This document shows, piece after piece, positions 8,282 to 58,776 of a stretch of DNA of 64,000 bases; position 1 is the first letter of the stretch, and every line of letters begins with the position of its first letter. The translations under genes and the position numbers were made by a program. The notes below the pieces were generated by a model. That model made no database searches. It saw only the letters and a program-made list of their open reading frames with translations, and was not told the DNA's origin. Source of the DNA: Candidatus Levyibacteriota bacterium (GTDB lineage: Bacteria > Patescibacteriota > Microgenomatia > Levybacterales > UBA12049); NCBI GenBank assembly GCA_027459725.1, contig DAIDHK010000001.1, positions 67,411 to 131,410 of the forward strand. Direction: 5' to 3'.

Positions 8282-9160
8282 ATGCACTCATCTAACTGGA
8301 AACGCCTGGTACTTATTGGATTCATAGTTATTTTATTAGTTGCTATTCCAGTTGCTATCTATCTGGTCAAAACAACCACCAACACACAATCTCATGCTAC
8401 CCCTGCGACTAACTTAACTTTTACACCTCCTTCAAGCAATCCAGCACCTATTACCGCAAATGTAGGAGATACGGTGCCATTAACTTTAAACATCGACCCT
8501 GGAACCAATCTGGTAACGTCAGTAAAGGTATATATTCAATATGATCCCACTAAACTTAGTGCCTCAAGCACAGCCTTCACTGTCAATGATTCAGCTTTTC
8601 CTGTAACCGTTCAGGGCCCTAGTTATTCTCCCGGTTCTATTTCCTTTTCAGTCTCTATTGGTGCAGACTATACCAAGGCTATCCAGTCTCCTACCAGTGT
8701 GGGTACACTGACCTTCACAGCTCTAGCTGCAACTGATCCCAACAATCCTACTCAGGTAAGTGTGACTACTCAATCGCAGGTCTTATCTGCCGGCCCCAAT
8801 GATCAATACCCTGAGAATGTTTTGTTATCACGACCTATTGCCTACATCGCCGTAAATGGACCCGCACAACCATCTACAACACCAACTCTAGTTCCTTCTG
8901 CTACTCTCACTCCTGTTCCCGGTGTTCCAACTGATACACCCGCACCAACGCTGGAGGCTTCACCTAGTGCAAGTCCTATTGCAATTGCTACTCCTACTAC
9001 TGCAGCTGTAGCAGTAATCGCTAATCCGACTGATACACCTGTTCCTCCACTGCCCACAGCGACTATTGCCGCTACAGGTTCTACTAATGTTACATTCGGT
9101 GCAGGTGCTGTATTAACTGTGTTATCTGTTATTGGCGGGGTAATTTTCTTCGTACTGTAG
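8282..9160 (+). CDS. membrane-anchored surface protein with cohesin-like beta domain, Pro/Thr-rich linker and C-terminal hydrophobic anchor
   Basis: N-terminal TM 'LVLIGFIVILLVAIPVAIYLV'. 'ITANVGDTVPLTLNIDPGTNLVTSVKVYIQYDPTKLSASS' resembles the cohesin-domain consensus. P/T-rich segment. C-terminal 'IAATGSTNVTFGAGAVLTVLSVIGGVIFFVL'. Confidence 0.55.
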   Translation: MHSSNWKRLVLIGFIVILLVAIPVAIYLVKTTTNTQSHATPATNLTFTPPSSNPAPITANVGDTVPLTLNIDPGTNLVTSVKVYIQYDPTKLSASSTAFTVNDSAFPVTVQGPSYSPGSISFSVSIGADYTKAIQSPTSVGTLTFTALAATDPNNPTQVSVTTQSQVLSAGPNDQYPENVLLSRPIAYIAVNGPAQPSTTPTLVPSATLTPVPGVPTDTPAPTLEASPSASPIAIATPTTAAVAVIANPTDTPVPPLPTATIAATGSTNVTFGAGAVLTVLSVIGGVIFFVL

Positions 9161-23555: not shown

Positions 23556-25994
23556 ATGAACCTGCCATTTTTTTCAAAGGCAAATAAAAAAACGGAAATA
23601 AGTTATTTTTTAGCCCTTACGTTACGAGATGAACAGATAGGAGCATATGTCCTCAAAGAAGAAGCAGGGAAATTGCACTTAGTAGGCAAGGGTGAAGAAA
23701 TCCTTGACAAATCTATTGAGCAATTAGACTTGAAAAATCAAATTGATATTTTAGACCGCATTATTAGTCAGGCAGAGAGTTCTTTACCCAAAAATGTTAT
23801 GACCCGCAAAACAATGTTTGGGGTCAAAGAAAGTTGGGTCGAAGATAACAAAATAAAAGCTGATTATCTGCATAAGCTCAAACAGATTTGCGATGAACTG
23901 GGCTTACAACCAACTGGGTTTTTAGTAATATCAGAAGCTATTGCGCATCGTTTGCAACAGGAGGAAGGAGCTCCTCTTACTGCCATCCTGGTGGAGATCG
24001 GAAAGAGTCAAATGACCGTTTCACATATTAAAGCAGGTAAGATCCTGGAAACCAAACATACCATAATCATTGAGTCTGCTATTCTGACACTAGATGCTTT
24101 GCTTAAACATTTCATTACCACTACAGTATTACCTACCAGAATCATTTTATTTGACGGTAATAACACTGCTAATTTAACCCAGGAATTTATAGCACATCAA
24201 TGGAGCAAGAGTCTGCCTTTTTTACACATGCCCCAGATTACACCTCTACCTCATGGTTTTGATGCACGCTCGGTTATTCTAGGAGCAGCTGAACAGATGG
24301 GGCTGCAGGTGTCCAGTGATATTAATATGGCTGGATTACCTGAGAAATCAGTTGAATCTAATCCTCCATTCATGGAGAATTTACAACCCGTCACCCCAAT
24401 AATGGACGCTACACCAAATAATCCAGAAGAGCAAGGTGAAGCTGAACCACCAGCTGAAGAATCAACAGAAACAATGGCTCGTGAGTTCGAGAAAAGGTTA
24501 AATGCCAGACTCAGTCCAGACGAGGAAAAAGACCTATCTTCAGTCGATGAAAGTAATGTAACTACTGCCGAAGAGTTTGGTTTTGTCAAAGGAGTCGATA
24601 TTTCAACTTTGCCGCATAAAGAACCACCCATCATGACAGAACATCATAGGCATGAAGAGAATGACATTATTTCGACAGAAGCCATTACAGATTATAGTAG
24701 TGACTACACAAACCATAACTTTAACCAACAGGAAGAACATATAAAACCAAAGCAAAAATTTTCATTGACCAATATGTCTTTCTTATCCGGCAGCATAAAT
24801 AAACTTTTACAGAAATTATTTATGAGTAGCTCTGACTCTCAATCTGATTCTAAAATCCCCCGCTGGATGATTATTGTACCCATTGTCTTACTATTAATAG
24901 TAGCTGGAATTGTATGGTATATTTTTAATGTTAAAGCAACTGTGAATCTTACCTTAAAACCAAAAATAGTTGAAGAACAGGGGAATATTACTTTTGCTCT
25001 CGGCTCTGGCAATGACTTTTCCAATAATACACTTGCGGCTTCGGATGTATCAGTTGACTTAAACGGCACTGCCAGTACGACTGCTACCGGCAGTAAAGCA
25101 GTAGGTTCCCCAGCCAAAGGTACTGTCACCATATATAACAACTCAAATAGTCCGGAGACATTAGCAGCAGGAACAACGATAACTTCCACGAATAATCTTG
25201 TCTTTACATTCGATAATAATGTGACTGTTGCTTCGGCCTCAGGAGATCAGTTTACGGGAACAAAACCAGGTACCGCCGATGTTAACGTAACTGCCAAAGA
25301 TATCGGCCAGCAGTACAATCTTCCTTCCGGCACCGTATTTTCTATTAATGCCGGTAATTCAGTAGCTGCCAAGAATAATAGTGCATTCAGTGGAGGAAGC
25401 AAACAGACAGTCACTGTAGTATCCCAGGCTGATATCAATAAACTGCTTAGCTCTTTACCTCAAAGTCTGCAGAACAAGGCTAAAAGCCAGCTACAAAGTC
25501 AGATATCCAGTGGACAGACACTTCTGCCTGGTATAACCAGTGATAATTTTAAATCCAAATCTTTTAATCACAATATAGGTGACCAGGCCAATTCAGTTAC
25601 GCTAACTGGTACAGTTACTTTCCATGGAGCAGCATATAATAATCAGGATTTACAGAATCTGGCAAAAACCATGTTAAAAGATAAATTTACAGGTAACTCT
25701 TCTTTGTCAGATAAAGGAATTAGTGCTAATATCAGTAACTTGCAACCTTCATCTGACGGCAAAACTATTGGAGCCACAATCGACTTGCAAGCCGGGCTTC
25801 TACCAAACATTGATACATCAAGTCTAATCTCTCAGGTGAGGGGTAAGACTGCCGCTCAGGCTACTCAGGTGTTAGACGGTATACCTCAGATTGAATCAAG
25901 TTCTATCAATCTAAGTCCTAATATACCTCTGATCCCGAAAATTTTACCGCGTTTTTCCAACCACATCACAATCAAGATCAACAGTAATGGCTAA
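23556..25994 (+). CDS. bitopic membrane protein: N-terminal cytoplasmic FtsA/PilM-like actin-fold domain, acidic linker, single TM, large Ser/Thr/Asn-rich extracellular domain
   Basis: The N-terminal ~260 aa align by eye to FtsA ('ISYFLALTLRDEQIGAYVLKEEAGKLHLVGKGEE' vs 'VVGLEIGTAKVAALVGEV...'; 'LTAILVEIGKSQMTVSHIKAGKI' vs 'VCVVDIGGGTMDIAVYTGG'). TM 'WMIIVPIVLLLIVAGIVWYIF' near residue 430; the ~370 aa after it are low-complexity, beta-rich ectodomain. Confidence 0.5.
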   Translation: MNLPFFSKANKKTEISYFLALTLRDEQIGAYVLKEEAGKLHLVGKGEEILDKSIEQLDLKNQIDILDRIISQAESSLPKNVMTRKTMFGVKESWVEDNKIKADYLHKLKQICDELGLQPTGFLVISEAIAHRLQQEEGAPLTAILVEIGKSQMTVSHIKAGKILETKHTIIIESAILTLDALLKHFITTTVLPTRIILFDGNNTANLTQEFIAHQWSKSLPFLHMPQITPLPHGFDARSVILGAAEQMGLQVSSDINMAGLPEKSVESNPPFMENLQPVTPIMDATPNNPEEQGEAEPPAEESTETMAREFEKRLNARLSPDEEKDLSSVDESNVTTAEEFGFVKGVDISTLPHKEPPIMTEHHRHEENDIISTEAITDYSSDYTNHNFNQQEEHIKPKQKFSLTNMSFLSGSINKLLQKLFMSSSDSQSDSKIPRWMIIVPIVLLLIVAGIVWYIFNVKATVNLTLKPKIVEEQGNITFALGSGNDFSNNTLAASDVSVDLNGTASTTATGSKAVGSPAKGTVTIYNNSNSPETLAAGTTITSTNNLVFTFDNNVTVASASGDQFTGTKPGTADVNVTAKDIGQQYNLPSGTVFSINAGNSVAAKNNSAFSGGSKQTVTVVSQADINKLLSSLPQSLQNKAKSQLQSQISSGQTLLPGITSDNFKSKSFNHNIGDQANSVTLTGTVTFHGAAYNNQDLQNLAKTMLKDKFTGNSSLSDKGISANISNLQPSSDGKTIGATIDLQAGLLPNIDTSSLISQVRGKTAAQATQVLDGIPQIESSSINLSPNIPLIPKILPRFSNHITIKINSNG

Positions 25995-44961: not shown

Positions 44962-46323
44962 TTGATTAAACTAAGGAAAGTGAAATCTATTTTAATCCTG
45001 TTAATCGTGTTGATAGTAGCCGCAGCTGTTTCGTTAAGCGGAGGATTTAGTTCATTTTTACAAAGCGGCAATCAGGCCAGTCTTACCAGCGCAATTACCA
45101 TTACAGGAACTTCAACCGGATCAAACAGTTCGACAACTCTTAATGATACTTCCAAAAGCTTTACTCCAGGATCATTGGTAGGAGATACTATTACTATCAA
45201 TTCCGGTACCGGTGCTGGGCAGTCAGCAACTATTACTTCCAATACTAACAACCAAGTTACGATTGACAAACCCTGGACTACTACACCAGACACCTCTTCT
45301 AATTATACAATCACACCACCCGGAACAGGGGGATCAGCCAGCAGCGGCGGAATAGTTGTTGTTCCACCCCCCAATCAGAACGGCAAACAGTTACAGTTAA
45401 ATACCTTTGAGATGATTACTTTAACACCAACCTCAGCACCTACGCCAGCAACTGCTTGCGTATCTACAGATGGACCCAGAAACTCCAATTGTTCGTGTAC
45501 TACCCCGAGCGTCATCGCTGTTACCTGCAATGTTGGTAATACTAACCCTTCTGTTTTTAATGGGATTGGAGTTAATGAAACTTGCCCAGATGGAGGTGTT
45601 CCATGTGCGGATGTAAAACCAAAATATTATGCAGGTATAAGTTGCACTCCAACAAGCTGCGTATACCTTAAAAATACCTTAGTCATTCCTGGAGGTAGTA
45701 CGTTACCAGCAAGCCCAAGTTATTCAAAATATGAGAATTGTACAGGTGTGGCAAATGTTTGTTTTGATAAACCAGTCATTTACTTATATTCTGATCATGT
45801 CATAAATCATGTTTCTGTAAAACTAAATATTCCAGGAATTATTACTAAAAGTATTCCATCATACCCCGAAACTGGATGGAATAATATAACAGTTATACCT
45901 GGAGGTATAATAAATTATGATAATAAGATCTATAATGAATTATTCTATGAAACTAGCGTAAAAAAAACTCCTCAGTTAACCACAGGTTACGTATATTCTA
46001 CTAAAAATTTGCCAATCGAGTTAAATAATTTAACAACTAGACTAGGATTAAAACAATCAGAAAAGGAAGAATTTCTGAATTATTGGATGCCAAAGTTATA
46101 TGCATTAAATAAACCATATATATACGTTGGGATTCTTTTTGCAAAAGAAAAAGAACAAGTAGATAATGTTATTATCTCTCCAGAACCTGATACGACTATC
46201 TCTTTCTTGACCATATTTAAAGGATTAAGTACAGAAATCTTAGTCAAACAACCCACTCTTCCTAATATCCCCACAAGAAAAGGATTTGTCATGGTTGAAT
46301 GGGGAGGCGCAATAGAAAACTAA
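44962..46323 (+). CDS. secreted/membrane-anchored protein with Ser/Thr-rich region, Cys-rich central domain and conserved C-terminal domain
   Basis: Signal anchor 'ILILLIVLIVAAAVSL'; about 14 Cys between residues 165-260; no recognisable catalytic motif. Confidence 0.45.
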   Translation: MIKLRKVKSILILLIVLIVAAAVSLSGGFSSFLQSGNQASLTSAITITGTSTGSNSSTTLNDTSKSFTPGSLVGDTITINSGTGAGQSATITSNTNNQVTIDKPWTTTPDTSSNYTITPPGTGGSASSGGIVVVPPPNQNGKQLQLNTFEMITLTPTSAPTPATACVSTDGPRNSNCSCTTPSVIAVTCNVGNTNPSVFNGIGVNETCPDGGVPCADVKPKYYAGISCTPTSCVYLKNTLVIPGGSTLPASPSYSKYENCTGVANVCFDKPVIYLYSDHVINHVSVKLNIPGIITKSIPSYPETGWNNITVIPGGIINYDNKIYNELFYETSVKKTPQLTTGYVYSTKNLPIELNNLTTRLGLKQSEKEEFLNYWMPKLYALNKPYIYVGILFAKEKEQVDNVIISPEPDTTISFLTIFKGLSTEILVKQPTLPNIPTRKGFVMVEWGGAIEN

Positions 46324-46986: not shown

Positions 46987-49392
46987 TCACTTTGTTAAAA
47001 CAATCTGTCCACTGGCATCGACATTTAAAACGATCTTATCTCCCCTTTTAATCTGATCCTGAAGTTTTGCTTTTGCCAATAAGTCTTCTATATTATCCTG
47101 AATATACCTTCTCATCGGACGAGCTCCAAATTCAACGTCAGCACCTTCTTTAACAATTTTATCTATAACAACCTCGCTAAATGATAGACCAATATCCTGC
47201 TGTGCCATTTGACCAATAATGTCATTTAAAATTAACTGCACAATTTGCTTTAATTCCACAGGACCAAGTGGAGTAAAGGTAATAACATCATCAAAACGGT
47301 TTAGTAGTTCAGGACGGAAAATCTGATTTTGCTGCAGATATTCTAACAGCTTTTGCTGAAACACTTTATCTATTTTCTGTCCTGACACAACATTTTCACG
47401 AACAAATTCTGCTCCTGCATTTGAGGTGGCAATAATAATACTGTTCACAAAAGTAACCGTATGGCCTTTATTATCTGTCAAACGTCCATCTTCTAATACC
47501 TGCAAAAACAAATCAAGAATTTTAGGATGAGCTTTCTCAAATTCATCCAGCAAAACTAAAGAAAACGGATGATCATGAATTTTATCAGTCAGTTCGCCTC
47601 TTTCATTCCCCTCTCCGGGGGCTGAACCAAGTAGTCTTCTCTCTCCATCAATATCGGAGTACTCAGACATGTCCAGACGAATCATATTCTGTTCGCCGCC
47701 AAAATATACCGAAGCTAAGGCTTTAGCTGTTTCTGATTTGCCGACTCCAGTTGGCCCTAAGAAAAGGAAAGAAATGGGTCTATTCTGTGTAGTTAGGCCT
47801 GAGCGTAAACGCCTAAGTGCCTCAGCAATGGCCGAGATAGCCTGCGTCTGATCAATAACCTTTTCATGAATTTTATCTTCCAAATGCAATAATAATTCTT
47901 TTTCCTCTTTGGTAGGAGCACCTACATTAACCTGAGTTTTTAAACTGATTTGTGCCTCGATGTCACTGGCTAATACTACTTTTTGTCTTGACTTACCCAG
48001 ATAATGAGATTGTGAAGAAATTGCCACACTATTAGCCGCATCGTTGAGTAAGTTAACAGCACTACCTGGCAGCACCGCATCCTGCTCGTAACGGTCAGCC
48101 AGGTTAATAGCAGTCAGTACTGCATGATAAGTCATTATCACACCATTTTTATTTTCTATATCATCTGTTTTGGCAATTAGCATTTGCGTCGCAATATCTT
48201 TACTGGGTTCAAGAATATTGATTAAGGTAAACACTTCATGGAGTGGATTCTGCTGCATGTAAGTTTTGTAATTACCGGGTGACATACTGGCAATTACCGG
48301 CAGAAAGCCAGACTGTAAATAGGGCAACAGAGCGCCGGACAAATCTATAGCATAAGAACTTGCTCCCATCAAATTTTCAAAATCAGGAATATACAAAATT
48401 ACATTTCTGGCATGTGAGACTTCGGCTACGATCGATTCTAAACGAAGCTCTAAGTCACTACGGTCTTGCGCTCCGGCAATAAGCGGACCCACCATAAGCT
48501 GTAAAATCTTCTTATGATTAAGAAAGCCTGAAAGATGAGAGTAATAACTATCATTGGCCAACTCAGCCACCAGATTTTCTTTCCCTACACCATCTTCGCC
48601 CACCAGTAACACATTATTGTTTTCCCTTTTGCTCAGTGCTTCTAAAAGCGCTCTATATTGATCTTCTCTTCCTATTAAAAACGGTTCTATATCACGATAA
48701 CTAAAGTCCTGTGTATAATTTTTAGTCTCCGGGGTCCAACCATTTACAATCCCTTCGCCTATTCCTTCACCGGTAAAATTCATTCTAATTGGTCTGGGGA
48801 ACTCTTCGTTTTTAAATTTATAACGAGCCCATAATAATATTTGAAGTAGTTCCTCCTGTTTAATTTCATGATTGAAAAGTGTTTTGGTCTGATCTTCGCT
48901 CAAGAGCAAATAAGCAACCAGAGCGTCCATAGTAGTAATATAACTTCCGCCTATTTTCTCTACAATTTCTGCCGCTTTAGCAATAATTTGATCTGTGGGG
49001 ATATCTAGAACTTTAATATCCTCAACTGGTATCGCTGATTTTTCTAATACAAAAGACACGGTGGGAGTTTTTAATAATTTGTAAATAAATTTTTGCAATG
49101 TAATTGCAGAAAACAAAATTTGTAATAAATCTTTACTGCTAGACAGTGTCCATTTACCTTTATCATTTCTATTTACAGGTAGATAAGGATGAGATAAGTA
49201 GACATGAAAACGAAAAAATATTTCACAGATCAGAAACCATACAAAAACAAATAACGGCAAGCTAACTGGAAGTTTATGATTTAACTGGTTGAGAAAAAGT
49301 AAAATCACAAATACAAAGACTAATGTTCTGACAGACCGCAATAGCGCAGATGTATATATAATCTTTAATTTAACTAAACCTTCAATATTCAT
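46987..49392 (-). CDS. membrane-anchored Clp/Hsp100-family AAA+ ATPase with degenerate D1 and intact D2; no ClpP-docking loop
   Basis: Two N-terminal TM helices ('TLVFVFVILLFLNQL', 'LPLFVFVWFLICEIFF'), then a Clp_N-like repeat. D1 Walker A 'GEDGVGKEN' (canonical GEPGVGKT) and Walker B 'ILYIPDFEN' (canonical ILFIDELH) have lost catalytic residues. D2 is intact: 'FLGPTGVGKSETAKALA', '[29 protein letters not shown]', 'ATSN', 'GARPMRR'. No [ILV]G[FL] loop and no M-domain. Confidence 0.8.
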   Translation of the reverse strand: MNIEGLVKLKIIYTSALLRSVRTLVFVFVILLFLNQLNHKLPVSLPLFVFVWFLICEIFFRFHVYLSHPYLPVNRNDKGKWTLSSSKDLLQILFSAITLQKFIYKLLKTPTVSFVLEKSAIPVEDIKVLDIPTDQIIAKAAEIVEKIGGSYITTMDALVAYLLLSEDQTKTLFNHEIKQEELLQILLWARYKFKNEEFPRPIRMNFTGEGIGEGIVNGWTPETKNYTQDFSYRDIEPFLIGREDQYRALLEALSKRENNNVLLVGEDGVGKENLVAELANDSYYSHLSGFLNHKKILQLMVGPLIAGAQDRSDLELRLESIVAEVSHARNVILYIPDFENLMGASSYAIDLSGALLPYLQSGFLPVIASMSPGNYKTYMQQNPLHEVFTLINILEPSKDIATQMLIAKTDDIENKNGVIMTYHAVLTAINLADRYEQDAVLPGSAVNLLNDAANSVAISSQSHYLGKSRQKVVLASDIEAQISLKTQVNVGAPTKEEKELLLHLEDKIHEKVIDQTQAISAIAEALRRLRSGLTTQNRPISFLFLGPTGVGKSETAKALASVYFGGEQNMIRLDMSEYSDIDGERRLLGSAPGEGNERGELTDKIHDHPFSLVLLDEFEKAHPKILDLFLQVLEDGRLTDNKGHTVTFVNSIIIATSNAGAEFVRENVVSGQKIDKVFQQKLLEYLQQNQIFRPELLNRFDDVITFTPLGPVELKQIVQLILNDIIGQMAQQDIGLSFSEVVIDKIVKEGADVEFGARPMRRYIQDNIEDLLAKAKLQDQIKRGDKIVLNVDASGQIVLTK

Positions 49393-49721
49393 AGCTTAAT
49401 GAAAAATAAAAGAAATGAAAAAACTGGTAACAGGACAAAAACGCATATAAACATAAATTCAGCGCACAATAAAACCAACAACAGCAACAAGGAAATTAAA
49501 ATAAGAGCTGTCTTCACAAAAATCCCCATGCCGATAGAAAATCCTACCAGACCCTGCCTGTATTCATTTTTAATAGGTTGAAAAAAAGTTCTTAACAATA
49601 ACCCGACAGAAAACATACGTAAGAAGGAGGAATTAAGTGAAGAAAAATACGACAACAGTCCAAGCGGAGCATTTACATACCAGAATTTCAAAAACTCAAC
49701 CGGCAACAGTGAATATTGCAT
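49389..49721 (-). CDS. small polytopic membrane protein
   Basis: 110 aa, three predicted hydrophobic segments. Its stop overlaps the TM-Clp start (translational coupling). Fills the gap downstream of the M4 protease. Confidence 0.4.
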   Translation of the reverse strand: MQYSLLPVEFLKFWYVNAPLGLLSYFSSLNSSFLRMFSVGLLLRTFFQPIKNEYRQGLVGFSIGMGIFVKTALILISLLLLLVLLCAEFMFICVFVLLPVFSFLLFFIKL

Positions 49722-49781: not shown

Positions 49782-51863
49782 CTACTGACATGCAAAAGTA
49801 CACAACTGCAATCCCCCTGCTCCATGTGAACATTTACTGACGACCTTACATCCCGGCAAAGCCATGTTTGCCTGATTTAATAAACCAGACGGGACCTTCC
49901 ACTCAATCAAATAGTTGCCAGTTTGTGAGATAGTTGTTGAATAAGGTCCAATGGTTATGCCATCGGGTAATTGAGCTGTCAGCTGCAATTGTCCAAAACT
50001 AAAATCAGAAAAATCAACCGCTCCAGTGAGACTCGTAACACCTGTAAACTGCTGACCGCCAGAACTTAAAGTCAAGTTTACATTCGATATACCCTCATTA
50101 CCATCATAATATCCGTTGCCATTAAGATCGTTATAGACGATAACATGTAAAGATAAATCCGCTGAGGGAGTACCTGTAAGACTAACTGTACCATTTGGAC
50201 TCACAGTTGGAGATGGTGAGACTCCTTTTGTCGACAGAGGCTGACTGCTGCATGCAGGAGCAACTTCAGTTCTATTTAAACATACAGCTCCCTGCTGTGT
50301 ATTAACCGGTTGCTGATCCATCTCAGTAGCCTGTAAAGCTTTTTCAACATTAACACAAGTATTAGAGTACCCTCCATATAAATCATTACAGGCTAACAGC
50401 ATGTCAATATACATATCGGAAAAATTTGCTGAAGGAATTAAATAATGAGTTAGCGCCCGATATTGAATCTGATAACTGGCACTGCCTATACCATCAATCT
50501 GACAGCCGTTAAAACTTCCTCCCTCAGTCATCAAATAAAAAGCTTTATTCATCACACCCTCGTTGGAATGAACTCCTCCACTGTCTTGAGTATCACAGAT
50601 ATACAACGGAGAAAAAAGTTTATCCGGCTGACCAGTAAGTGTAGGATCATTCAGATATCTAAAAGGTGTTTTAACTCCCGCAATATGAACATCCGCTCCT
50701 ATTGACCAGTTATGATCAATGCCGGTAGCAAAAATATCTGAATTGCTTTCATTTAATGCTCCTGACTGATAGCTATAAATTAATCCTGCAGTGTAATGAG
50801 TTACCGCATGCGTTAATTCATGTGTGACGATGTCCAAAACATCCATACCGGCACATAATTCAATCCCACCGTCTACATAAGCTGAATTAGGACAGGGGAA
50901 TCCCGCAATATCAGCTCTGTTCACATAACCAAAAAGGGTTGCACCTTTATTATCTATACTGTCGCGGTTAAAATTGTTTAGATAAAACTGGTATACCTGC
51001 CCGAAAATATCATAAAGTTTATTGACGTCAGTGTTCATGGAGGGGGGCTGACCCTCTGTACGACTCACTACGCAATTATCAGAGTTGTTACAGTTGCTGA
51101 TGTTGCGGGCTAAAAGTGTTTCTACCTGATTTTCCTGGTAAACAATTTTTCCACTGGTTAAGTCAATAAAATAACGTGTAGCAAAATCCGGTGGTTTGTT
51201 CGATGTAGTTATTAAAACAGCTAAAACATGATAGGTAGTGCCATTATTGCTCAGGCCTAAAGCCTGCAGATTTAATAAGTACTCATTATCATTAGCAACC
51301 TTTAAATTTAAATGAGGATTATCCTTTCTTGCCTGGTTTAAGGCAATCATTTCAGCTTTCTCCCGGTTGATTTGGGTACTCAAAGTAGCAGGTTGCTTAG
51401 TAACCACTACCCCCGAAGCAGCATATATCTCGTCCACATGCTGAATGTGAACCGCGATAATCCCATCATAAACAGGTATATTATCTATGGTTTGCTGATA
51501 AAAATAATGTTCGGTGCCTGGTAGATAGTAGGTAGGACTTTGCTGGTCAACCAAGCTTCTCTGTAAAACAACCTTGGAATAACTATTTAAACCATTCCCA
51601 AAAATCCCGTTAGGATTTGCGCTAATAAAATCTAATGCTGCTGCCTCCCCCTGCTGATTTGATTTATATAAATAACCATTTTCAGTGTACAAGGAAAAAG
51701 CATTATCATTGCTATGTGTAACAGTATAAGAATCTTTGCCTAATATCTGAGGACTGATCCTAATCTGACTGACAAAATATGTTATTAAAGTAACTAATAT
51801 AAGTAATACGAAAGCTTCGACTAACCAGTATCTTCTCAAATACTTTAAAACCTTTTCTCTCAT
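49782..51863 (-). CDS. secreted M4 (thermolysin-like) zinc metalloprotease with N-terminal signal anchor/propeptide and C-terminal beta-rich extension
   Basis: '[33 protein letters not shown]' = HEXXH plus the downstream Glu ligand. '[17 protein letters not shown]' and '[16 protein letters not shown]' are collinear with thermolysin ('[34 protein letters not shown]...GGVHINSGIINKAAYLI'). Confidence 0.85.
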   Translation of the reverse strand: [693 protein letters not shown]

Positions 51864-55024: not shown

Positions 55025-57925
55025 TTATTCTGATTTATTTTTGAACTCTTCAACAGTTTTATCCTTTTTTTCATCAGCATATTCATTCACCGATACGTCC
55101 AAATGCCCCTCCAGTTTGTCCTGCTGAACTGAGGTTGTTCTTTGACTAAGAAGTGTATCCTCTTCCTCTTCCTGTTTGCCCAAGTTGGCCAGTACTTCTT
55201 TAGCAGCTTGTGCTTTAGCTTTTAAGTAAGCCACAATTTCAGATTGTGAGAAACCTCCAATCAGCAAAAACGGCAGAATTCCAGACACACGCTGCATGCC
55301 CTGACTTACTTGTAATTGATCCTGAGAGGAAAGTAAAGAAATTGTCTCTGCAATATCCTCAATATCTGAAATCAGCCATGACTTACGATCACTGATCCTT
55401 CCATCCAGCGTTTCTGGAACATCCATGTTAGTATAGTTATCAGCCCACATCTGTCTGACAGCTTCATAATCCTCAATGCTGACGGTCTGAATGCGGTTAG
55501 AAGAAGGCAGATTTGCTCCCGCATTGGAGATCTGAACACCATTTTGCGCTAAAAGTTCTAACACCTTTACGGCTAAGGGATCTCCCTTTTGTTTGGCATC
55601 CTGCAAAGTCTTTAATAAACGTTGAACTTGAGAAATAATATCGGGAGATTGTGCAGATGCCAATAATTCAGTAGCCAATTTATTACCCTTTCGACTTTCC
55701 TGTTTGAGTTGATCATGTAATTTGGTAACTGTTGGCAGATCAACTTTACCTTTTTGAGAAAATAGTTTAGTAGCAGCTAATACATTTACTGCGACAGGAT
55801 TACTACTAGCACTTTCCTGATGCAATGTCTGTACAATTGTATTAAGGGTTGAGGGCAGAGTAGACGTAGACTGAGTAGCAATTTTTTGAATCATTTGGGA
55901 AATACTTTCGATTTCCGTTTTATTAATAGTATTCATAGTTGAGACGACCAGCGAAGCGGTAGTATTACCTTTTTCACTTTGCTCAACTATGGTCTGACGT
56001 ATCTCATTAGCTTTAGTTCTCTCCATCTGACTAGCCGCAATTGTAGGATTTAAGATTGTATTCATGGTTTGTTGAACCGTATTTGCTGTCTGTTTGCTGA
56101 CACTGGTAGCCGTAGCCAGAGACGCCGCCTGTAAAATGTTCTTTGCTAAAACATTTCCCTTCTGACTCTCAACCATTAATCTTCCTCTTATCTGGCGGTA
56201 TGTATCCTGTTGAGCACCAATCGCACTGGTCGGGTTAGCAATTTTCGACAACGTTTGTTCATAACGTAGCGAGGTAGGAGAGGATTTATTAACTATCATA
56301 TTTTTCTCAAATTGCGCTATGTCACGCATAGTGGGAACATTAAGATTAGTCAGGCGCATAAGCTCAGAATTTATTTTTACAGGTATTTGAACCGGTTGAT
56401 TCCTTTTAATATCCACGTTTACTGGTACTTTAAAATTAGCCCCAAAAGGCAACGACTTAGCCAGACCTGTGGGTTTATACTTACTTGGAGGTTGAGGGGA
56501 AATCGGTGAAGGAGGGGGGGGATTAAACATAGCAGGACTTCTGGCTATCAGCTGCTGTACCCATGCGTTCTCATTAATTGAAAATGAATTAAGATAATCA
56601 AGAAAAATCTGCAAAAGAATAAACGGTAATAAGATAACTACCCATAACATCATTAATGCCACAATATATTCTGCAAAAGTTTCGACATAATTTATGCTAT
56701 TGTTAATACCGACCTGTTGTTTGGGTCCACCAAGCAAAATATTAATAGCTGTAGGAAACCTATCCAACAACTCCGGTGAGCCGGGTTTAAAGGTTGAAGG
56801 ATCCTGTCCGCCTAATACAGCGGAAGAATTATACGTATCTCCTGCCAAATCTGTATGTGTATAGTCTGTGAAGTTAAGAGGAATATAATTTACCCATACG
56901 CTTACCAAGCCGGCAAGTAATATTGAAAACAATGGTGCATACAATAACCAGCGGAAGAATTCACCTATCCAAATTTTGGCCGTATTACGAACCGGACTAA
57001 AAAATAGAAGTAAGGGGAAAACGGGAGAGAGGATAATAAAAAACCACATGATAATTTTACGCAGCAACAAAATACCAACCATAACGTAATACGTGATGGC
57101 TGTCAGCTTGACGAGTAACAGAGCAATAAAAGCAGATTCCGTAGCGGAAGGATCTGCCAAGCGCAAACCAACAAATGTGGCGTAATCCCATCCTACAAAC
57201 AAGAGATCTTTTTGTGAAATATTATTGGGAGCATATGTAGGACTTTTAAGAAAGAATAACTGGATGATATCTCCTAACTGGTAGAGAAATTGAATTATAC
57301 TCCAGGAAAAATATACTAAAATCACAATTACTATAAAGCGGATAATAAAACGCCTAACGCTTAAACTTCTACCCCGCGTTGCTATAATGACAATAGCGGC
57401 AACAATCAATACTACTGCCAGCATTGCATATACAATATAACTAATTTTTAACCAGAAAAGCTGTAAAGGATTTTGAGAGGGAGATCCTCCACTTCCCGGC
57501 ATAAGATATACCCAACCAAAATTTTTTGCGCTTAAAGTCCAGTCAAGCAAAAGTCCCGCGCGGGCAGCATTTTGCCCGACAAAAGTTACTTCACTATCAG
57601 GCACATAAGTTCCAGTCGGCACTGGAGTGGTACCCACACCAATTGCACCTGCTCCTCCACCAGGAGTAGGAGAAGGCGTTGGCGTGGCAGTAGGGGTGGG
57701 AGAAGGAGTTGGTGTAGGTGTATTTATGGGAGCAGAACAACCACATGATGGACCAGATAATCTACTACTAGGTGCTACACAAAAACAAGTTTGTCCAACA
57801 GGGCATGTACCATTGGTACTACCCCCACAAGTATAAGTTGCTGCATCTACAAGATAAGCAGAGTTAAAAAATAAACCAAAATAAACTAACAATGCAATGA
57901 AGATGCTGGGCAGTTTTTTCAACAT
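55025..57925 (-). CDS. large polytopic membrane protein: signal peptide, Cys-rich and Pro/Thr-rich ectodomain, ~7 TM helices, ~480-aa C-terminal domain with degenerate 'KGNxLAxxxLxxA' repeats (VirB6/TrbL-like topology?)
   Basis: Signal 'MLKKLPSIFIALLVYFGLFFNSAYLVDA'. Eight Cys in 'TYTCGGSTNGTCPVGQTCFCVAPSSRLSGPSCGCS'. (TP)n linker. Multiple hydrophobic helices between residues ~150-470. Repeats 'ESQKGNVLAKNILQAA', 'EQSEKGNTTASLVV', 'ESRKGNKLATELLASA', 'AKQKGDPLAVKVLELLA'. Confidence 0.6.
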   Translation of the reverse strand: MLKKLPSIFIALLVYFGLFFNSAYLVDAATYTCGGSTNGTCPVGQTCFCVAPSSRLSGPSCGCSAPINTPTPTPSPTPTATPTPSPTPGGGAGAIGVGTTPVPTGTYVPDSEVTFVGQNAARAGLLLDWTLSAKNFGWVYLMPGSGGSPSQNPLQLFWLKISYIVYAMLAVVLIVAAIVIIATRGRSLSVRRFIIRFIVIVILVYFSWSIIQFLYQLGDIIQLFFLKSPTYAPNNISQKDLLFVGWDYATFVGLRLADPSATESAFIALLLVKLTAITYYVMVGILLLRKIIMWFFIILSPVFPLLLFFSPVRNTAKIWIGEFFRWLLYAPLFSILLAGLVSVWVNYIPLNFTDYTHTDLAGDTYNSSAVLGGQDPSTFKPGSPELLDRFPTAINILLGGPKQQVGINNSINYVETFAEYIVALMMLWVVILLPFILLQIFLDYLNSFSINENAWVQQLIARSPAMFNPPPPSPISPQPPSKYKPTGLAKSLPFGANFKVPVNVDIKRNQPVQIPVKINSELMRLTNLNVPTMRDIAQFEKNMIVNKSSPTSLRYEQTLSKIANPTSAIGAQQDTYRQIRGRLMVESQKGNVLAKNILQAASLATATSVSKQTANTVQQTMNTILNPTIAASQMERTKANEIRQTIVEQSEKGNTTASLVVSTMNTINKTEIESISQMIQKIATQSTSTLPSTLNTIVQTLHQESASSNPVAVNVLAATKLFSQKGKVDLPTVTKLHDQLKQESRKGNKLATELLASAQSPDIISQVQRLLKTLQDAKQKGDPLAVKVLELLAQNGVQISNAGANLPSSNRIQTVSIEDYEAVRQMWADNYTNMDVPETLDGRISDRKSWLISDIEDIAETISLLSSQDQLQVSQGMQRVSGILPFLLIGGFSQSEIVAYLKAKAQAAKEVLANLGKQEEEEDTLLSQRTTSVQQDKLEGHLDVSVNEYADEKKDKTVEEFKNKSE

Positions 57926-57926
57926 A

Positions 57927-58343
57927 CTAATTTATTTTCTGATATTCATAATCTGCATTCTTCACGTATTGATTTGTTTTATACAACTGTATCCATTTTT
58001 CTTCCTGACCTGCCGGAACTGTAACCTCAAAGACAATATCAGTTCCTTTTTGATTATAAGAACCATTAGAACTGTACTGTACTAAACGGGCTGGCTCAGC
58101 GTTTTCCAGAAACAAACTTACAGCCTCATCATAATTAGTACTATCTACTGTAACCAATATTTTTCCTGCAACATAAGGAGATAATCCAAAGATTCTATAG
58201 AGACCTGTTTGATATATAAATGAGGGATTATTAAACACATACAGATATAGAATAAACATAAATAGAGTAAGAAATACTCCCAACAAAAAACCTGTAGCAA
58301 AAGAATATTTTCGCTTTGACGGTTGTGATATTTTTATCGGCAT
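57927..58343 (-). CDS. bitopic membrane protein (N-terminal TM + ~100-aa extracytoplasmic domain)
   Basis: TM 'FATGFLLGVFLTLFMFILYLYVF'; 1 nt from the neighbouring genes on both sides. Confidence 0.45.
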   Translation of the reverse strand: MPIKISQPSKRKYSFATGFLLGVFLTLFMFILYLYVFNNPSFIYQTGLYRIFGLSPYVAGKILVTVDSTNYDEAVSLFLENAEPARLVQYSSNGSYNQKGTDIVFEVTVPAGQEEKWIQLYKTNQYVKNADYEYQKIN

Positions 58344-58346
58344 ATA

Positions 58347-58655
58347 TTAAGCTCCAAATCCGGGTAATTTTAAGATGTCAACTAAAACTATCTGAATAAA
58401 CAGATAACCAAAAATAGCTAATAACAATCCGGCAATAGCATAATATAAATAACTTTTACCATTACGTAAGGCAGCAGGATCCCCCTGTGACGTAAGAAGA
58501 ATATATGCTCCATAGAGAATAAATATTAAAGAAAGTCCTCCGATAATACTTAAGCCAATACCATAAAACCTTTCAGCAAAGGCTACAGGATCAGTAGGTA
58601 AGCAACCAAAATCAGTTGTGATTCCGCTTCCTCCATTTGGTAAAGTACACTGCAT
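58347..58655 (-). CDS. small 2-TM hairpin membrane protein (VirB2/TrbC-pilin-like topology), first gene of the operon
   Basis: 102 aa. Two hydrophobic helices ('IGLSIIGGLSLIFILYGAYILL', 'LYYAIAGLLLAIFGYLFIQIVLV') separated by the polar loop 'TSQGDPAALRNGKS'. No N-terminal signal peptide. The resemblance is architectural only. Confidence 0.45.
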   Translation of the reverse strand: MQCTLPNGGSGITTDFGCLPTDPVAFAERFYGIGLSIIGGLSLIFILYGAYILLTSQGDPAALRNGKSYLYYAIAGLLLAIFGYLFIQIVLVDILKLPGFGA

Positions 58656-58736
58656 ACTATTACGTTAGCAGAGATAGCTCATAAAAACAATATTTATGAT
58701 GCCTAAAATTATTAAATTAATTTAATAATTTATAAC

Positions 58737-58776
58737 AAAAAAACACCCTCAGCTGGATAGACTGAGAGTGTTTTTT
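58737..58776. terminator. bidirectional terminator-like hairpin in the divergent leader region (possible attenuator of the minus-strand operon)
   Basis: 'aaaaaaa-CACCCTCAG-ctggataga-CTGAGAGTG-tttttt': 9-bp stem with one mismatch, A-run 5' and T-run 3'. About 90 nt upstream of the operon's first start codon (58655, minus strand). Confidence 0.4.

Follow-up and report, generated by a model that had tools for sequence, protein, structure and literature searches.

What is the large membrane protein that a Candidatus Levyibacteriota bacterium encodes between a pilin gene and a gene for a Clp-type ATPase, and can it belong to a type IV secretion system (T4SS) when no VirB4 is encoded beside it? The locus lies in a 64,000-nucleotide stretch of contig DAIDHK010000001.1 (assembly GCA_027459725.1, positions 67,411 to 131,410 of the forward strand), hereafter the window, whose own numbering is used throughout unless another locus is named. 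A preliminary description had placed a 966-aa polytopic membrane protein at 55025-57925 and suggested an extended VirB6/TrbL-type channel, a reading it considered unsupported without VirB4. The open reading frame (ORF) exists exactly there on the minus strand, with an ATG start and its stop codon inside 55025..57925, and its product is an exact match to a predicted protein on a 279,945-bp NCBI contig. We consider it likely that this protein is an extended VirB6, a polytopic T4SS subunit forming the platform for VirB2 pilin assembly. The VirB6/TrbL reading has become the best-supported assignment because the AlphaFold2 (AF2) model matches the TrwI/VirB6 fold, TrbL recurs among the homologues, and a T4SS_pilin gene lies upstream. 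The parts of the protein are as follows.

55025..57925, minus strand: whole ORF, 966 aa, extended VirB6-like membrane protein (ORF call, homologues, AF2 model, fold match)
57842..57925, minus strand: signal peptide, aa 1-28, MLKKLPSIFIALLVYFGLFFNSAYLVDA (hydropathy)
57737..57829, minus strand: Cys-rich N-terminal cap, aa 33-63, 6 Cys (sequence, homologue comparison, AF2)
57662..57721, minus strand: Thr/Pro/Ser (TP/SP) linker, aa 69-88, TPTPTPSPTPTATPTPSPTP (sequence)
56516..57628, minus strand: VirB6-like core, aa 100-470 (AF2, Foldseek, TrbL register in homologues, invariant columns)
56468..56524, minus strand: Pro-rich, Lys-containing linker past the last hydrophobic helix, aa 468-486 (sequence, loop charges)
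55559..56257, minus strand: array of five ~47-aa helical repeats, aa 557-789 (shuffle test, repeat hidden Markov model [HMM], AF2)
55151..55507, minus strand: conserved terminal helical domain, aa 807-925, IQTVSIEDYEAV..MW.DNY ... ILPFLLIGGFSQ.EIVAYLKAK (invariant columns)

The membrane core is made up of a short ecto-segment that is conserved (TFVGQNAARAGLLLDWTL), 5-6 hydrophobic helices, and the motif PVRNTAKIWIGEFFRWLLYAPLF at aa 311-333, the sharpest and most conserved motif across the family. Kyte-Doolittle hydropathy gave six hydrophobic segments (~159-181, 191-213, 264-288, 290-310, 325-346, and 418-446) in addition to the signal-peptide stretch at aa 7-28, and AF2 modeled aa 259-306 as a single long helix, giving 5 helices instead of six. 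The ~7 transmembrane helices of the preliminary description are thus replaced by a signal peptide and 5-6 hydrophobic helices, and this polytopic layout with an extracytoplasmic N-terminus is that of TrbL/VirB6 proteins. Modeled alone from a 96-sequence alignment, aa 100-470 reached a predicted local distance difference test score (pLDDT) of 87.2 and a predicted template modeling score (pTM) of 0.85; the pLDDT of the full-length model was 71.5. TrwI/VirB6 of R388 provided the only Foldseek matches to the full-length model with a probability >0.5. When the aa 100-470 model was searched against 350,542 PDB chains, the nine best matches were all TrwI/VirB6 (8rt9_F, 7o3v_F/G/J/I/H, and 8rtd_L/H/I), with probabilities of 0.35-1.00, E-values from 0.037, template modeling scores (TM-scores) by target of 0.35-0.47, and ~330 aligned columns, and all PDB matches ranked under these nine chains had probabilities <=0.10. 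The aa 100-470 model therefore has the VirB6 fold as solved for TrwI. TrwI is ~340 aa long, with 188-272 residues modeled in each of the matched chains. A transporter fold was rejected, with ATP-binding cassette (ABC) and major facilitator superfamily (MFS) matches at probabilities <=0.04.

The protein belongs to a large family. With a word-indexed search we retrieved 625 homologues. All come from Patescibacteria, most being named Levybacteria or Levyibacteriota, and their sizes are mostly 1200-1680 aa. Conservation is centered on the hydrophobic core, which typically shares 50-64% identity with the 966-aa protein across the family, and an exhaustive HMMER search with the core alone returned 411 cluster representatives at E<=1e-3 (208 at E<=1e-30). 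The family is present in at least 120 species-level genomes. Core identity falls to 35-39% in the distant members L089 and L090, and a search outward from the distant short member P0365 gave just 18 relatives, 3 of them with a TrbL annotation. Many related metagenome-assembled genomes (MAGs; loci L009-L086) are titled "uncultured Gammaproteobacteria", and their gene content and closest relatives are those of Levybacteria; the titles are probably submitter mislabeling.

The sequence evidence for VirB6 is weak and appears to point one way. When homologues were scanned singly, Pfam TrbL/VirB6 (PF04610) was the only recurrent family, matched at E<0.01 by 17 of 72 sequences (9/38 close and 8/34 distant homologues). 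Two homologues scored over the TrbL gathering score of 25.9 (P0010, 27.8 bits; P0042, 27.1 bits), and the four TrbL matches shown in detail share a common register, with profile positions 2-178 falling on the equivalent hydrophobic-helix region.

We analyzed the gene neighborhood in 79 related loci from species-representative genomes, scoring their ORFs against the window proteins. The neighbors of the VirB6-like gene that recur in this sample, together with an inserted gene, are the following.

58347..58655, minus strand: upstream partner, 102-aa VirB2-like pilin, two-helix hairpin with two N-terminal Cys (Pfam PF18895)
57927..58343, minus strand: 138-aa single-transmembrane protein between the pilin and VirB6-like genes, with homologues only in L008 and L009
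51924..54995, minus strand: downstream partner, 1023-aa Clp/Hsp100 (ClpB-like) AAA+ ATPase (Pfam/NCBIfam scans, ClpB alignment)
44962..46323, plus strand: 453-aa signal-anchored Cys-rich protein, no family match

The pilin gene was directly upstream of the VirB6-like gene in 76 of the 79 loci, at a median distance of 3 nt; the 138-aa protein inserted in the window is limited to the closest relatives. The window pilin matched T4SS_pilin (PF18895) at E = 4e-4 and 20.8 bits, under the gathering score of 26.6, and the consensus of 75 pilin orthologues scored 32.1 bits, over it. The pilin sequences show two hydrophobic helices with a basic loop, in keeping with the two-helix hairpin of T4SS_pilin members, and the 102-aa protein also weakly resembles a pilin-like protein of mycoplasma integrative and conjugative elements. 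Downstream, the Clp gene was found in 67 of 68 informative loci (those in which the downstream sequence exceeds 3 kb), the gap being 51 nt in the median and 29 nt in the window. The adjacency of Clp ATPases mentioned in the preliminary description thus stands, with the amendment that the first of them is more than a neighbor, namely a conserved partner gene. A homologue of the 453-aa secreted protein lies between the VirB6-like and Clp genes in seven loci, and in 11 loci it lies either there or just upstream of the pilin gene, so that the 453-aa protein may be an accessory part of the cassette.

The 1023-aa ATPase is 46% identical to Escherichia coli ClpB and has both Walker A motifs intact. 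Aligning the two proteins shows that the M-domain of the ClpB disaggregases is missing entirely. Its score against TIGR03346 was 894, under the cut-off of 1232, and the M-domain motif spacing in 49 Clp orthologues had a median of 35 aa (range 35-222) versus 151 in E. coli ClpB. The ClpP-binding [ILV]-G-[FL] loop in D2, which marks ClpA/ClpC protease partners, was absent from the 1023-aa ATPase and from 62/62 orthologues. Lacking both M-domain and ClpP loop, the ATPase fits neither the canonical disaggregases nor the protease partners. It carries disordered S/T/P/Q-rich tails of ~100 aa at the N-terminus and ~190 aa at the C-terminus, and the orthologues range from 804 to 1513 aa.

In many loci, the gene order is hrcA-grpE-dnaK-dnaJ-pilin-VirB6-like-clp. 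Elsewhere dnaJ is found downstream of clp, and two opposite-strand genes set it apart in the window. The trio of pilin, VirB6-like, and Clp genes thus stays together while the dnaKJ link does not. Complete Levybacteria genomes such as OY970292.1 and OZ246394.1 also carry the cassette. A CIRCE-like inverted repeat was identified directly upstream of hrcA in L004 (5372..5398) and L005 (5486..5512) only, with 3 mismatches to TTAGCACTC-N9-GAGTGCTAA, where it heads the hrcA-...-clp gene string. The cassette may be co-regulated with the HrcA-type chaperone genes, which it directly follows in most genomes. A CIRCE operator search in the window found none, the promoter/terminator scan gave nothing above shuffles, and the Rfam scan of the window gave no match. 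A perfect 16-bp hairpin with A-run and T-run flanks at 58735..58775, ~80 nt upstream of the pilin start, looks like a bidirectional terminator, and the 205-nt pilin leader folds at z = -4.8 versus shuffles and matches no Rfam family. Many Levybacteria loci have, divergent from hrcA, a gene for a larger second T4SS_pilin-domain protein (151-420 aa); the matching position lies beyond the end of the window.

L004 4655..5320, L005 4206..4661, L006 2920..4092, and others, minus strand: second T4SS_pilin-domain protein, upstream of hrcA

Past the core, aa 470-966 are hydrophilic and all-helical in the AF2 model, in keeping with the large hydrophilic C-proximal domain of extended VirB6 proteins. This C-terminal module runs in the order LTNLxVPTMRDIA, then the 47-aa repeats with the family consensus EVLQQIANPSSVTSTTEREKITKLREKLVKASQKGNPLATSILSAAN, then the VSxEDYExVKxxWxxNY...ILPFLLxGGFSQxEIxxYLKAK domain. 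The preliminary description had noticed at least five degenerate repeats and made their statistical significance a point to check. Five units were recovered with an HMM iterated on the family (aa 557-601, 619-665, 677-718, 733-759, and 766-789; independent E-values 7e-15 to 1e-4), and the four anchored units had a mean pairwise score of 45 versus 22.8 +/- 1.9 in shuffled sequences (z = 11.5). The array is all-helical in the AF2 model (pLDDT 70-88), homologues carry 3-12 units by the repeat HMM, and no DNA-level tandem repeat was found under the protein repeats. Among 115 members counted, the module was present as one copy in 23, two in 83, and three in 9. The 966-aa protein is thus the one-module form and not a truncation, given these 23 single-copy homologues and a stop codon that lies 29 nt from the Clp gene. 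A frameshifted or truncated gene, considered in view of the 1200-1680 aa of most homologues, was rejected, the extra length being tandem duplication of the C-terminal module. Relatives of the module outside the family were not detected in Pfam, NCBIfam, or PDB.

The C-terminal module is strongly conserved, with many invariant residues, whereas the N-terminal cap is variable. Behind the signal peptide, whose cleavage is predicted from the sequence, six Cys were counted (C33, C41, C47, C49, C61, and C63; all within 31 residues), not the eight first reported. A disulfide-knotted module had been suggested here, and as a defining feature of this protein it is not sustained: the segment has no confident fold (pLDDT <50) and is not conserved. 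P0002 and P0007 also have 6 Cys and most homologues have 0-2, and because only the closest relatives carry the cluster, the Cys-rich cap is not a family feature. The (TP)n linker that had been described behind it is present at aa 69-88.

The position of the C-terminal module relative to the membrane depends on the number of crossings. At the family level, K+R density is high in the loops at 182-190 and 311-324 and past residue 447, and lowest in the loop at 347-417; the loop at 214-263 is net acidic and has a CPPxC pair in the family consensus. These loop charges appear to favor an N-out/C-in topology with five crossings, and Agrobacterium VirB6 is likewise N-out/C-in with five crossings. With this topology the repeat module would lie in the cytoplasm, and we think the C-terminal module is more probably cytoplasmic than extracellular.

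No VirB4 was identified among the window ORFs, every one of >=486 aa being scanned. A phmmer search with Agrobacterium VirB4, the sole VirB4 query used there, gave no match within +/-10 kb of any of the 79 loci, and six neighborhoods with precomputed Pfam annotation contained no VirB4-type family. The absence recorded in the preliminary description therefore extends from the window to 10 kb on either side of the related loci, and the pairing with VirB4 typical of TrbL/VirB6 genes was not found there; nor was VirB4 found near L089 and L090. The survey of Patescibacteria T4SS uses VirB4 to define the system and describes a scarcity of VirB6 in Microgenomatia, "suggesting extreme sequence divergence" (PMC12102498). 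In the portion of its Table S1 used here, 20 of 44 Levybacteria assemblies have VirB4 and 24 do not, with "No" entered for the cassette-bearing assemblies of L054 and L056, and neighboring lineages in the same data set are almost all entered as "Yes" (PMC12102498). As these are draft MAGs, the absence of VirB4 from Levybacteria is suggestive.

Several results weigh against an extended VirB6. Foldseek E-values never came down to 0.001 and the TM-scores were all <0.5. The 966-aa protein had no significant Pfam or NCBIfam match, only a sub-threshold PDS5 helical-repeat match, and the family consensus had no Pfam or NCBIfam match at all. Sequence searches of PDB (phmmer and profile) returned no VirB6, just designed helical repeats and coiled coils at E>0.04. 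Comparison with an Agrobacterium-type VirB6 alignment by hmmsearch and by hhalign (local, low-mact, and global modes) was negative, with probabilities of ~1% or less; the comparator was narrow (116 sequences, effective number of sequences [Neff] 3.8), and a negative of this kind leaves room for remote homology. A six-crossing topology, as counted from the Kyte-Doolittle segments, would put the C-terminal part outside the cell, and this part is nearly free of Cys (0.01 per 100 aa versus 0.87 in the N-terminal part, across the family). Near-absence of Cys is also typical of exported or translocated proteins. At the gene level, VirB4, VirB3, VirB8, and a coupling protein were not recognized in the window or within 10 kb in the related loci (the +/-10 kb screen of the 79 loci having used Agrobacterium VirB4 only), and L089 and L090 are not beside a Clp gene and have no recognized pilin gene nearby.

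How such a protein would be used can be read in more than one way. It may be the divergent VirB6 of an ordinary Patescibacteria T4SS with its VirB4 gene at another site (near dnaA in Microgenomatia), so that the Clp/DnaK adjacency would represent inherited gene order or shared stress regulation and no shared machine; we regard this as quite possible, if short of probable. In Microgenomatia, virB4 is commonly near dnaA/dnaN, VirB2 arrays are present, and VirB3 homologues are often unlinked to virB4 (PMC12102498), which agrees with a component encoded apart, as do the ~45% of Levybacteria assemblies with VirB4 in the portion of Table S1 used and the CIRCE-like element upstream of hrcA in L004 and L005. 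That reading sits less easily with the assemblies without VirB4, over half of those in the same portion and including two that bear the cassette, with a trio that outlasts the rearrangements shifting dnaJ, and with an ATPase that is not a canonical ClpB. These same observations bear on a second reading, in which pilin, VirB6-like protein, and Clp-type ATPase form a self-contained three-part system independent of VirB4, where an ATPase hexamer, by analogy with ClpV, would dock on the C-terminal repeats and, in the place usually taken by VirB4 as energy source, power extraction of pilin from the membrane or unfolding of substrates. The trio is intact in 67/68 informative loci with gaps of a few to ~50 nt while dnaJ moves, the ATPase is non-canonical in lacking M-domain and ClpP loop, the Agrobacterium VirB4 query found nothing within 10 kb at any locus, and 24/44 Levybacteria assemblies in the portion of Table S1 used, including those of L054 and L056, have none while nearly all neighbors do. 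We nevertheless judge this reading rather unlikely, since contact between ATPase and C-terminal module is suggested by synteny and the non-canonical ATPase only, absence from draft MAGs does not prove that VirB4 is missing, and a C-terminal module outside the cell could not dock a cytosolic ATPase. Moreover, hrcA-grpE-dnaK-dnaJ and a CIRCE-like operator accompany the cassette in many genomes, and the Clp protein may simply be the heat-shock Hsp100 of the lineage. The most specific form of this second reading, a minimal VirB4-independent T4SS descendant made of pilin, extended VirB6, and an Hsp100 motor docked on 1-3 cytoplasmic repeat modules, is unlikely.

The protein could also have no role in secretion. 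It would then serve as a membrane anchor or receptor peculiar to the lineage, bringing in the Clp ATPase so that membrane or exported proteins undergo quality control, or it would carry surface-adhesin repeats; the VirB6 resemblance would be a helical-bundle shape in common and nothing more. Marginal sequence-level support for VirB6, TM-scores <0.5, a virtually Cys-free C-terminal part as is common in exported or translocated proteins, and six Kyte-Doolittle segments that would set the C-terminus outside are all compatible with such a role. It is nonetheless very unlikely in our view, as the nine top structural matches are exclusively VirB6, the upstream pilin gene is closely linked to the VirB6-like gene, the C-terminal module shows good conservation where the N-terminal cap varies, and loop charges favor C-in.

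On the extended VirB6 reading, the signal peptide would export the variable N-terminal cap, and the aa 100-470 core would oligomerize in the cytoplasmic membrane as a central platform, which by analogy with R388 is probably pentameric. This core may then take the co-encoded VirB2-like pilin from the membrane and stack it into a surface filament or conduit, a step we infer from the same analogy, and by means of the filament or conduit the ultra-small Levybacteria cell could make contact with a partner cell or exchange material with it. The Cys-free C-terminal repeat module, most likely cytoplasmic, would be a scaffold on which soluble factors dock; first among the candidates is the Clp-type AAA+ ATPase of the gene directly downstream, and a coupling of the VirB6-like protein to it is plausible.

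Other genes noted in the window are the following.

46987..49392, minus strand: 801-aa Clp-like ATPase, the second in the window, whose first AAA domain is degenerate (GEDGVGKE, no DE Walker B)
49389..49721, minus strand: 110-aa ORF without a Pfam match, which overlaps and always precedes the 801-aa Clp-like ATPase
49782..51863, minus strand: secreted M4 thermolysin-type metallopeptidase with FTP propeptide and SdrD_B-like domain, between the two Clp genes

The 110-aa ORF was present in 41/79 related loci and the 801-aa ATPase in 36/79, in an arrangement that resembles clpS-clpA; the M4 metallopeptidase occupied the position between Clp genes in just 10/79. Farther away, an 812-aa ORF at 23556..25994 (plus strand) among housekeeping genes (alaS, yceG) had a weak Baseplate_J-like match (E = 2.8e-5), and a 292-aa protein at 8282..9160 (plus strand) had a cohesin domain (E = 8e-8), which is unusual for a small candidate phyla radiation (CPR) genome.

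CPR/Patescibacteria are dependent on other cells; few of their genes have been shown essential for epibiotic growth, and T4SS-like genes belong to these few. The family described here is a strong candidate for the VirB6 subunit that the published survey hardly found in Microgenomatia, and it is probably the missing VirB6 of that group. Pilin and VirB6 can pass together as one inherited unit that leaves VirB4 out; the pair is firmly tied to an atypical Hsp100, and about half of the assemblies of this lineage in the portion of the survey table used are without VirB4. If the ATPase were indeed the motor, the view of what T4SS-type pilus assembly minimally needs would change, work on CPR-host contact would gain a concrete three-gene target, and T4SS parts and an Hsp100 motor would together make up a new class of envelope-spanning machine.

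Among known systems, TrwI/VirB6 of plasmid R388 (PDB 7O3V, 8RT9, 8RTD) is the best and only consistent structural match of aa 100-470. Both proteins have long hydrophobic helices, an N-terminus outside, and a VirB2-type pilin encoded alongside, and in R388 the VirB6 platform is a pentamer, with a proposed role in VirB2 recruitment (PMC12857230). They differ in sequence and fold detail (13-15% identity, TM-score 0.35-0.47, Foldseek E ~0.04) and in the extra 500-aa C-terminal module of the 966-aa protein, and TrwI works with VirB3/4/5/8 in a diderm, whereas none of these was found at the Levybacteria cassette. Extended VirB6 proteins are defined by at least 5 hydrophobic helices and a large hydrophilic domain in C-proximal position (PMC12857230), and the architecture of this subfamily (F TraG, Rickettsiales VirB6 paralogues, and MPF_FA VirB6 of 700-900 aa) matches that of the 966-aa protein, except that the module here is family-specific, with its 47-aa IANP...ESQKGNxLA repeats and VSxEDYExVK...ILPFLLxGGFS domain. 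The ATPase can be compared, by analogy only, with ClpV (TssH) of type VI secretion, a ClpB-derived AAA+ protein not coupled to ClpP and dedicated to a secretion apparatus; the 1023-aa ATPase scored 699 bits against NCBIfam TssH, under the cut-off of 885, no type VI secretion genes are present, and its dedication to the cassette is suggested by synteny only. The T4SS of Patescibacteria comprises VirB4, TrsD, PrgI/VirB3, VirB6, and VirB2-like pilin arrays and is essential in Southlakia epibionticum (PMC12102498). The Levybacteria cassette, from the same phylum, resembles it in pairing a PF18895 pilin with a VirB6-like protein in a monoderm, on the chromosome and without relaxase (PMC12102498), but the Patescibacteria T4SS clusters around virB4, often near dnaA, and the cassette lies in a dnaK/clp neighborhood with no virB4 nearby. 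Extended VirB6 proteins and Patescibacteria T4SS are already known, and this is not a new kind of system; what is new is a large, previously unassigned family with a family-specific repeat module, in a conserved pilin/VirB6-like/Hsp100 cassette detached from VirB4.

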